This document shows positions 28,205-28,747 of a stretch of DNA of 52,506 nt, one piece after another. The stretch lies in the UHGV virus genome UHGV-0041832. One strand, 5' to 3'. This DNA is from a virus. The notes below the pieces were generated by a model. It made no database searches and was not told the origin of the DNA. It saw nothing but the letters and a program-made list of their open reading frames with translations. Position numbers and translations under genes: made by a program. Numbering within the stretch: position 1 is the stretch's first letter; every line of letters starts with the position of its first letter.

Positions 28205-28747
28205 ATGGCTAAGGCTAAAGGCATTAAATTGCCTCAATTTAAGATCCCACTCTTTGAGCATACAACCGTTTTCTTTTGCCCGACCCGCGAGATGTTCTAT
28301 GAATTTTGCGAAAAGGCAGGAATTCCGATTGAACCTGATTTCGAGTTGGCTGGAGGATTAACGCTTACTTGCACTGGCGAGAATGGTGGTAACTTCTACG
28401 TGATCGCAGTATTCAACAATGAGTTGGGAACGCTGGTCCATGAATGCGCCCACACTACATTCCACGTTTTAAGTGATGTAGGCGTCGTGGCTACCACGGA
28501 TCCTACCCATCCGGCGAATGAGACTTACGCTTACATGGTAGGCCGTATCTTCGATGCGTTTTTCCCTATCCTAGCAGAATCAAACGAAGCACAGGTTGCA
28601 GCAATGCAGGCGGCAGAAGTCGTCGATCAGGCGCTGGAACAGGCAGAACAGCCGAAGGAAGAAGAAAAGCCAGCGAAGAAAGGTAAACGTAAGCCGAAAG
28701 CAAAAGAAGCGCTTGTACCGCGTGTTATGAGTTTTAAACGAGGCTGA
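28205..28747 (+). CDS. HExxH-motif protein with Lys-rich C-terminal tail (putative zinc metallopeptidase-like)
   Basis: 180 aa; HECAHTTFH motif; C-terminal KEEEKPAKKGKRKPKAK. Confidence 0.5.
   Translation: MAKAKGIKLPQFKIPLFEHTTVFFCPTREMFYEFCEKAGIPIEPDFELAGGLTLTCTGENGGNFYVIAVFNNELGTLVHECAHTTFHVLSDVGVVATTDPTHPANETYAYMVGRIFDAFFPILAESNEAQVAAMQAAEVVDQALEQAEQPKEEEKPAKKGKRKPKAKEALVPRVMSFKRG

Follow-up and report, generated by a model that had tools for sequence, protein, structure and literature searches.

The window, that is, the whole 52,506-nucleotide stretch of viral DNA that was analyzed (UHGV virus genome UHGV-0041832), is, judging by sequence similarity, a mEp021-like (mEpimmI) coliphage or prophage; the region considered here was 88–94% identical to Escherichia phages MagusPhagus, mEp010, mEp013, mEp021, mEp044, mEp515, and mEp554. 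The mEpimmI group consists of Nus-dependent, non-lambdoid phages (PMC11893012). Pfam searches identified a holin gene (26775–26975), a lysozyme gene (26976–27467), and Rz (27455–27925) with the embedded Rz1 (27645–27857), and further downstream the Sf6-type small terminase gene (29499–30014) and the large terminase gene (29989–31503), which is followed by the portal gene. The gene under study, ORF 28205–28747 on the plus strand, lies between these lysis and packaging genes; according to the ORF listing and the raw sequence, it is a complete CDS with an ATG start, 180 amino acids, and a stop codon, and it is a homologue of mEp021_49, MagusPhagus CDS0060, ST64T gp49, and HkcC of phages P22 and HK620. 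Both elements that the sequence-only reading had pointed out in the product were found, namely, HECAHTTFH (residues 79–87, nt 28439–28465), which begins with HECAH (residues 79–83, nt 28439–28453, plus strand), and a basic C-terminal tail (residues 151–180). A Shine–Dalgarno-like AGGAG (28191–28195, plus strand) could be read 9 nt 5′ of the ATG, with GAGG at the matching spot in mEp021, and a sigma-70-like promoter was looked for in front of the gene and was not found.

The distance from the end of Rz (27925) to the gene start was 279 nt, in agreement with the spacer of about 280 nt claimed previously; this spacer is not featureless, since it contains a terminator-like hairpin, preceded by an A-tract and followed by a U-tract (28088–28134, plus strand; −20.7 kcal/mol, z = −5.5, with 0 of 200 shuffles equally good). 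A rho-independent terminator is annotated at the equivalent position in mEp021 and mEp013. Given so strong a hairpin between Rz and the gene, expression of the packaging and head genes should depend on read-through or antitermination. An Rfam search of the whole window gave no match. The identity of the spacer among six related phages was 92–96%, and the lysis cassette was conserved to the same degree, so the spacer was rejected as an unusually conserved element. The spacer was also considered as a decayed gene, and it gave no match when searched with the genes located 5′ of homologues in other contexts (DUF2560 and others). It should be noted that an indel hot spot is located at 28076–28095, where mEp021 carries a 58-nt insertion relative to the window and MagusPhagus. 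A 31-codon ORF (28110–28205), called as a CDS in MagusPhagus, has its start codon in the hairpin loop and its stop codon overlapping the gene start (TGATG); it is probably not coding, since its differences from mEp021, assessed by eye in the alignment, are nearly all amino-acid-changing. On the 3′ side of the gene, after a gap of 2 nt, eight or nine tandem micro-ORFs of 20–34 codons occupy 28750–29488; each encodes one hydrophobic, transmembrane-like segment, and several of them are linked through TGATTATG or an overlap of stop and start codons. This block varies among mEp phages, and in mEp013 an HNH endonuclease gene stands in its place.

The gene at 28205–28747 is real, and both its domain and its tail are under purifying selection. 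The dN/dS ratio for the complete CDS was 0.04–0.05; for residues 1–125, it was 0.056 relative to MagusPhagus and 0.025 relative to mEp021, and for residues 126–180, it was 0.029 and 0.088, respectively, at dS values over all 180 codons of 0.44 and 0.82. The gene was present in all seven related phage records (7/7), and an identical gene was found in five complete E. coli genomes. Relatives were detected in 25 of 5426 genomes and were annotated in every case as "hypothetical protein"; the word-indexed protein search matched only close E. coli prophage relatives. The mEp021 homologue, mEp021_49 (194 aa, "hypothetical protein"), differs from the 180-aa protein chiefly in that its linker is longer by an insertion of 14 aa. 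Sixteen virion proteins were identified by mass spectrometry in the paper on the mEpimmI group, which does not discuss this gene (PMC11893012); virion proteins are labelled as such in the mEp021 record, and mEp021_49 carries only the label "hypothetical protein".

The relationships of the protein became visible in profile comparisons. A profile search of 1.8 billion representative proteins (cut-off E ≤ 1e-3) yielded 234 proteins, nearly all of 105–140 aa and mostly of about 120 aa, which align to residues ~1–130 of the 180-aa protein. Among the PHROGs, residues 1–131 matched positions 3–124 of the 127-position profile of phrog_1365 (E = 2.4e-31). By these alignments, residues 1–125 (28205–28579, plus strand) represent a large phage family that includes phrog_1365, HkcC of P22 and HK620, and gp49 of ST64T and whose members are mostly stand-alone proteins of about 120 aa. 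The sequence homologues also include Orf129 of phage L, gp70 of epsilon34, and gp49 of mEp021; identity to the query in tblastn was 46% for ST64T, L, and epsilon34 and 37% for P22 and HK620. The homologues of P22/HK620, ST64T, L, and epsilon34 share the same invariant H-E-x-x-H...E...Y, whereas they are 107–130 aa long and have neither the acidic linker nor the basic tail. The family was also found in virulent T7-like and N4-like phages, as well as in jumbo phages. Members of phrog_1365/HkcC are annotated as being of unknown function, and hkcC likewise (PMC2629481, PMC4837284); a search of the literature on the function of mEp021 gp49, phrog_1365, or HkcC found nothing. The family is widespread in phages and unstudied in function, and the present gene is a member from its tailed subfamily.

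Conservation within the family is concentrated in a few residues. In an alignment of 70 sequences with a mean column identity of about 19%, the sole invariant columns were G51, H79, E80, H83, and E106. In an alignment of 158 sequences, whose identity to the query was typically 25–35%, H79, E80, H83, and E106 occurred in 158 of 158, G51 in 157 of 157, Y110 in 155 of 158, and N105 in 102 of 158 sequences. The HExxH motif was present in 166 of the 169 family representatives, the other three being a fragment of 70 aa and two copies that are frameshifted and degraded, respectively; with this frequency and the invariance of H79, E80, H83, and E106 in the 158 sequences, a chance occurrence of the motif was rejected. 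H87, the last histidine of HECAHTTFH, is not conserved across the family, and E106 is the only invariant residue after HExxH. It lies 23 residues after H83 at the start of a predicted helix (residues 103–148), usually with an Asn before it, in the segment NETYAYM (residues 105–111; 28517–28537, plus strand). The invariant H-E-x-x-H...E pattern is, at the level of sequence, the signature of gluzincin metallopeptidases. H79 and H83 are the proposed zinc ligands and E80 the proposed catalytic base, whereas E106 as third metal ligand and Y110 as a transition-state-stabilizing tyrosine are proposed by analogy with ArdC.

The predicted structure was consistent with this assignment. AF2 models reached a pLDDT of 70 with 15 close sequences and a pLDDT of 91.6 (pTM 0.78) with the 70-sequence alignment. 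The predicted strands comprised residues 11–13, 21–25, 51–57, and 63–69, the predicted helices comprised residues 28–38, 74–91, and 103–148, and the last 32 residues were modelled as coil. H79, E80, and H83 are located on helix 74–91, and E106 is near the start of helix 103–148, so that the order of elements is strand, strand, helix, strand, strand, HExxH helix, and Glu helix. The minimal zincin layout combines a sheet with three helices (the backing, active-site, and Glu helices), and the predicted order fits it. The earlier proposal of a zinc metallopeptidase-like protein thus stands as far as sequence and predicted structure go, with an invariant HExxH and Glu and a near-invariant Tyr one helical turn later; a predicted structure lacking a zincin-like site, which would have spoken against it, was not what the order of the modelled elements indicated. 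A Foldseek comparison with viral models (BFVD) yielded 26 matches at E ≤ 1e-3, all of them small phage proteins, from sources as diverse as Erwinia, Pseudomonas, Ralstonia, Achromobacter, Acinetobacter, crAss-like, and Eggerthella phages; the few named neighbours were SprT-like or metalloprotease proteins.

Searches with the single protein reached no family in Pfam, NCBIfam, or PADLOC (E ≤ 10 for Pfam and PADLOC; the PADLOC library covers defence systems and not anti-defence proteins) and gave nothing usable among PDB sequences. With the family profile, the PDB sequences gave only sub-threshold matches, all of which were metallopeptidases (M35, astacins) aligned over the same segment. In a Pfam scan of all 70 members, 18 showed SprT-like similarity, though only weakly (best E = 0.0091), while the controls were recovered as expected from their families (ArdC with PF18818 at 1.2e-48 and E. 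coli SprT with PF10263 at 2.4e-23). PF10263 did not match the query at E ≤ 10, PF18818 matched neither the query nor any homologue examined, and neither model found anything on the four homologues from P22, ST64T, RSJ2, and KP8. The hhalign comparison of the family alignment with that of the ArdC domain gave a probability of 83%, with only 32 confident columns covering the strand pair and HExxH, and a loosened alignment gave no convincing match of the Glu helix to the ArdC domain. One family member in nr bears the name "PolyVal Metallopeptidase superfamily domain". As no curated threshold was reached, the domain was filed as a zincin-like domain of an uncurated family; by these comparisons, the nearest curated families are MPTase-PolyVal and SprT-like, and the protein is a member of neither. 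Membership in the SprT-like or ImmA/IrrE families, which had been raised as a candidate assignment, was likewise not borne out by the Pfam thresholds.

Among known proteins, the C-terminal domain of ArdC (PF18818) has the same H/E/H...Glu ligands, with a spacing of 24 versus 23 in the query, a conserved Tyr, and a protease domain of similar size (~125 aa), whereas the N-terminal ssDNA-binding domain of ArdC is absent from the query protein. In ArdC, the metal is held by H201, H205, and E229, with E202 as the base, and stabilization of the substrate has been proposed for Y255 (PMC7213743). The SprT-like/Wss1/Spartan proteins (PF10263) also have small HExxH zincin domains and carry DNA-binding modules, of which the basic tail described here could be the counterpart. 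Minigluzincins likewise combine a small sheet with backing, active-site, and Glu helices, and the concept that they share with the query is a soluble HExxH + Glu catalytic scaffold of ~100 aa. They are named, as proabylysin/projannalysin (Lopez-Pelegrin et al. 2013; PDB 4JIU), in PMC4559962.

The position of the gene in the late operon is shared by most family members. In a sample of 80 IMG/VR loci (47 mEp-like and 33 of other types), the gene lay between the lysis cassette and the small terminase gene in 78, a count that is biased towards the enterobacterial subfamily by the narrower alignment used in the locus search; the other two loci end at a contig edge. In these 78 loci, terS and terL followed downstream on the same strand within about 0.02–1.8 kb, and a recognizable Rz was found upstream in 68 of the 80. 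Seven temperate-phage contexts that were fetched independently and differ in terminase family all had the gene in this slot of the late block, past the lysis genes and a short way ahead of the small terminase gene. The order of genes was Rz, DUF2560, the gene, Dec, and terS in ST64T; Rz, a 66-aa ORF, and the gene, with terS two genes further, in a Klebsiella P22-like prophage; and Rz, Rha, the gene, a 65-aa ORF, and terS in a Paramixta prophage. In two metagenomic P22-like phages, the gene adjoins the terminase; in an Erwinia prophage, it is followed directly by the Terminase_2 small subunit; and in a Pantoea phage, a PF18894 metallopeptidase-like gene lies between it and terS. Other arrangements were found in the T7-like Ralstonia phage RSJ2 (terS, terL, lysozyme, Rz, and then the gene), in the N4-like Klebsiella phage KP8 (among small ORFs that form a block next to the terminase), in one distant tailed member (adjoining ParB-like, AAA, and helicase genes), and in P22 and HK620, where hkcC lies between sieA and orf59a/mnt instead of before the small terminase gene. 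The suggestion that such a protein at the lysis/packaging junction would be a non-standard function did not hold, since homologues are found at this junction in many enterobacterial phages, both P22-like and others. The terminase families differ among the contexts (Sf6-like, GP3_package, Terminase_2, and DUF2280), and the position was therefore read as a shared insertion slot of the late operon that secures late expression rather than as a specific partnership with a terminase. Since the slot between the lysis and terminase genes receives accessory genes in general, the position says little about function.

Several minor features were noted in these contexts. The PF18894 protein of the Pantoea phage (208 aa, 5375–6001 of that locus) has its own HExxH and is encoded directly after the gene, so that two metallopeptidase-like genes precede the terminase there; hhalign showed this "PhageMetallopep" neighbour to be unrelated to the family. 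The Paramixta prophage carries a gene for an AcrIF11-like ADP-ribosyltransferase between the antiterminator and holin genes (minus strand, 2369–2821 of the locus), which indicates that late-operon boundaries host anti-defence cargo. In the Klebsiella P22-like prophage, a 46-codon, very lysine-rich ORF (6374–6514 of that locus) shares 20 nt, read in another frame, with the 3′ end of the tail-less homologue; this ORF had no family match and is reminiscent of the basic tail fused to the query protein.

The C-terminal part of the protein consists of a linker and a tail. The linker (residues about 123–148) is acidic and rich in Ala, Glu, and Gln, and it forms the distal part of the long predicted helix, in which the Glu helix comes first (residues 103–148; 28511–28648, plus strand). 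The Lys/Arg-rich tail (residues 151–180; 28655–28744, plus strand; dN/dS 0.03–0.09) comprises KEEEKPAKKGKRKPKAK (residues 151–167, nt 28655–28705), followed at the end by the conserved EALVPRVMSFKRG. Within the mEp group, the length of the linker varies, KKGKRKPKAKEALVPRVMSFKRG is nearly fixed, and a second tail type as well as a frameshifted variant are also basic. The median extension beyond the domain among the 158 representatives was 7 aa, and extensions of at least 30 aa were found in 15 of them, most of which consist of a helical stretch that is acidic and rich in Ala, Glu, and Lys and, after it, a Lys/Arg-rich end (for example, ...KAPEKPAKPSKPKGGKRDRS, ...KKDSKKNPKKSKKPTKKISV, and ...APKPSNDKGARRDRR in distant members). 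About 90% of the family members are tail-less, and hence the core activity cannot depend on the tail. The simplest reading of the tail is that of a tether to nucleic acid or to an acidic partner. A shared docking peptide was also considered and rejected, since a tblastn search of phage genomes with the tail matched only the same gene. Zymogens of minigluzincins are inhibited by their own C-terminal tail, and by this analogy self-inhibition is a possibility.

Taken together, the data are best described, with a probability of about 60%, by a cytoplasmic, stand-alone, minimal gluzincin-type metallopeptidase with a late accessory function, most likely directed against a cytoplasmic host protein. 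One of the other explanations is a DNA-tethered protease of the SprT/Spartan/Wss1 type, in which the tail would bind DNA, activate or position the protease, and allow stuck or cross-linked proteins to be cleared from concatemeric DNA ahead of the terminase. The weak SprT-like Pfam matches (18/70) and the SprT-like names among the BFVD neighbours point in this direction, as do a Lys/Arg-rich tail that is under purifying selection and recurs in distant members, the constant adjacency of terminase genes, and the activation of Wss1 and Spartan by DNA (PMC4559962, PMC7213743). However, long extensions are confined to 15 of 158 representatives, the hhalign comparison of the family with E. coli SprT was negative, no zinc-ribbon match was found in the query with Pfam, and the third ligand is Glu, whereas that of Spartan is His (PMC7213743). 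The adjacency, moreover, spans unrelated terminase families and is equally explained by a shared insertion slot, while the copies in P22 and HK620 are located elsewhere; such a DNA-tethered protease was considered improbable. A protease of the ImmA/IrrE type with a phage or host repressor as its substrate would accord with a small HExxH protein in a temperate phage and with the P22 copy, whose place is in the immI region close to mnt, arc, and ant. Against this regulator-cleaving role, which the sequence-only reading had entertained, stands the fact that no XRE-type repressor gene adjoins the gene in any context examined; furthermore, Peptidase_M78 (PF06114) matched only 1 of 70 members (E = 0.099), the gene belongs to the late block and not to the immunity region in 78 of 80 loci, and the family extends to virulent T7-like and N4-like phages, all of which makes a repressor-cleaving function very unlikely.

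The relevant activity need not be proteolysis even where HExxH...E is intact, given that no proteolytic substrate was found for ArdC, the best-studied relative, and that its E229A mutant retained biological activity (PMC7213743). The domain could accordingly be a metal-binding or HExxH hydrolase-like protein without proteolytic activity, which might bind or inhibit a host factor stoichiometrically or act on a non-peptide substrate; its very small size (~120 aa), the lack in the model of a lower subdomain that could provide a deep cleft, and a weak match to an HExxH peptide hydroxylase model (E = 0.26) are in line with this, whereas the invariance of the catalytic E80 in addition to the ligands, together with a near-invariant Tyr, is the pattern of an enzyme and not of a binder. 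Such a non-proteolytic role was judged unlikely. The location immediately upstream of the packaging and head genes, together with the C-terminal targeting peptides known for capsid cargo, could also suggest that the protein serves morphogenesis as a prohead or scaffold protease, or that it is packaged into virions, with its basic tail acting as targeting signal. This is hardly to be expected, as most members are tail-less, the mEp021 homologue does not carry the virion label given to the proteins found by mass spectrometry, and the family occurs in P22-like phages, whose head assembly is not known to involve a proteolytic step.

For the gluzincin-type metallopeptidase, the following course of action is proposed. 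The protein very probably has a metal-binding zincin-like domain, in which H79, H83, and E106 would hold a divalent metal, presumably Zn2+, and E80 would activate the metal-bound water; Y110 may help to stabilize the transition state, by analogy with ArdC, and strand 63–69, which precedes the HExxH helix, may align the substrate peptide. That the protein is proteolytic is considered probable. Judging from its position, the gene would be read in the late transcript that runs from the lysis to the packaging genes through the hairpin at 28088–28134. As an accessory, moron-like product, the enzyme might act late in infection by cleaving a single cytoplasmic protein of host or phage, or a few of them; this is the weakest step of the scheme. 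The basic tail may steer the enzyme to nucleic acid or an acidic partner. Counter-defence or host manipulation would be the likeliest purpose, and a counter-defence or host-directed role is accordingly put forward tentatively.

Temperate enterobacterial phages, the textbook phage P22 among them, commonly carry members of this family, and the analysis provides the family with a concrete, testable assignment (putative ligands H79, H83, and E106, base E80, and Y110) together with a fixed late-gene position. More speculatively, and with little expectation of its being correct, phrog_1365/HkcC could be an unrecognized class of late phage proteases that cut a specific host protein, such as an immune sensor or effector triggered by the terminase, portal, or capsid, or its tailed subfamily could clear DNA-bound proteins before packaging. 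If the target were a host defence protein or a DNA-bound protein, a proteolytic mechanism would be added to late infection; if not, the gene would be one more accessory gene of the lysis-to-terminase slot. Some P22-like genomes (e.g., ST160, UAB_Phi20, Phi75, and SE1Spa) contain two paralogues, one ~46% identical to the query and located before terS and the other ~37% identical and located in the sieA–mnt region; if the family did form such a class of late proteases, these pairs would represent different target specificities.

Two further observations concern the reading frames of this family. Within the gene of the window, an alternative-frame ORF of 44 codons (28596–28730, +1 frame) is also extremely basic, and in the database variant P0116 a frameshift into the +1 frame leads to a different yet still basic tail. 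In the curated record of P22 (BK000583), an intact 125-codon hkcC with HECAH and NETYCY, which has no CDS annotation there, was found at 13849–14226 on the plus strand, where it overlaps the annotated sieA promoter.
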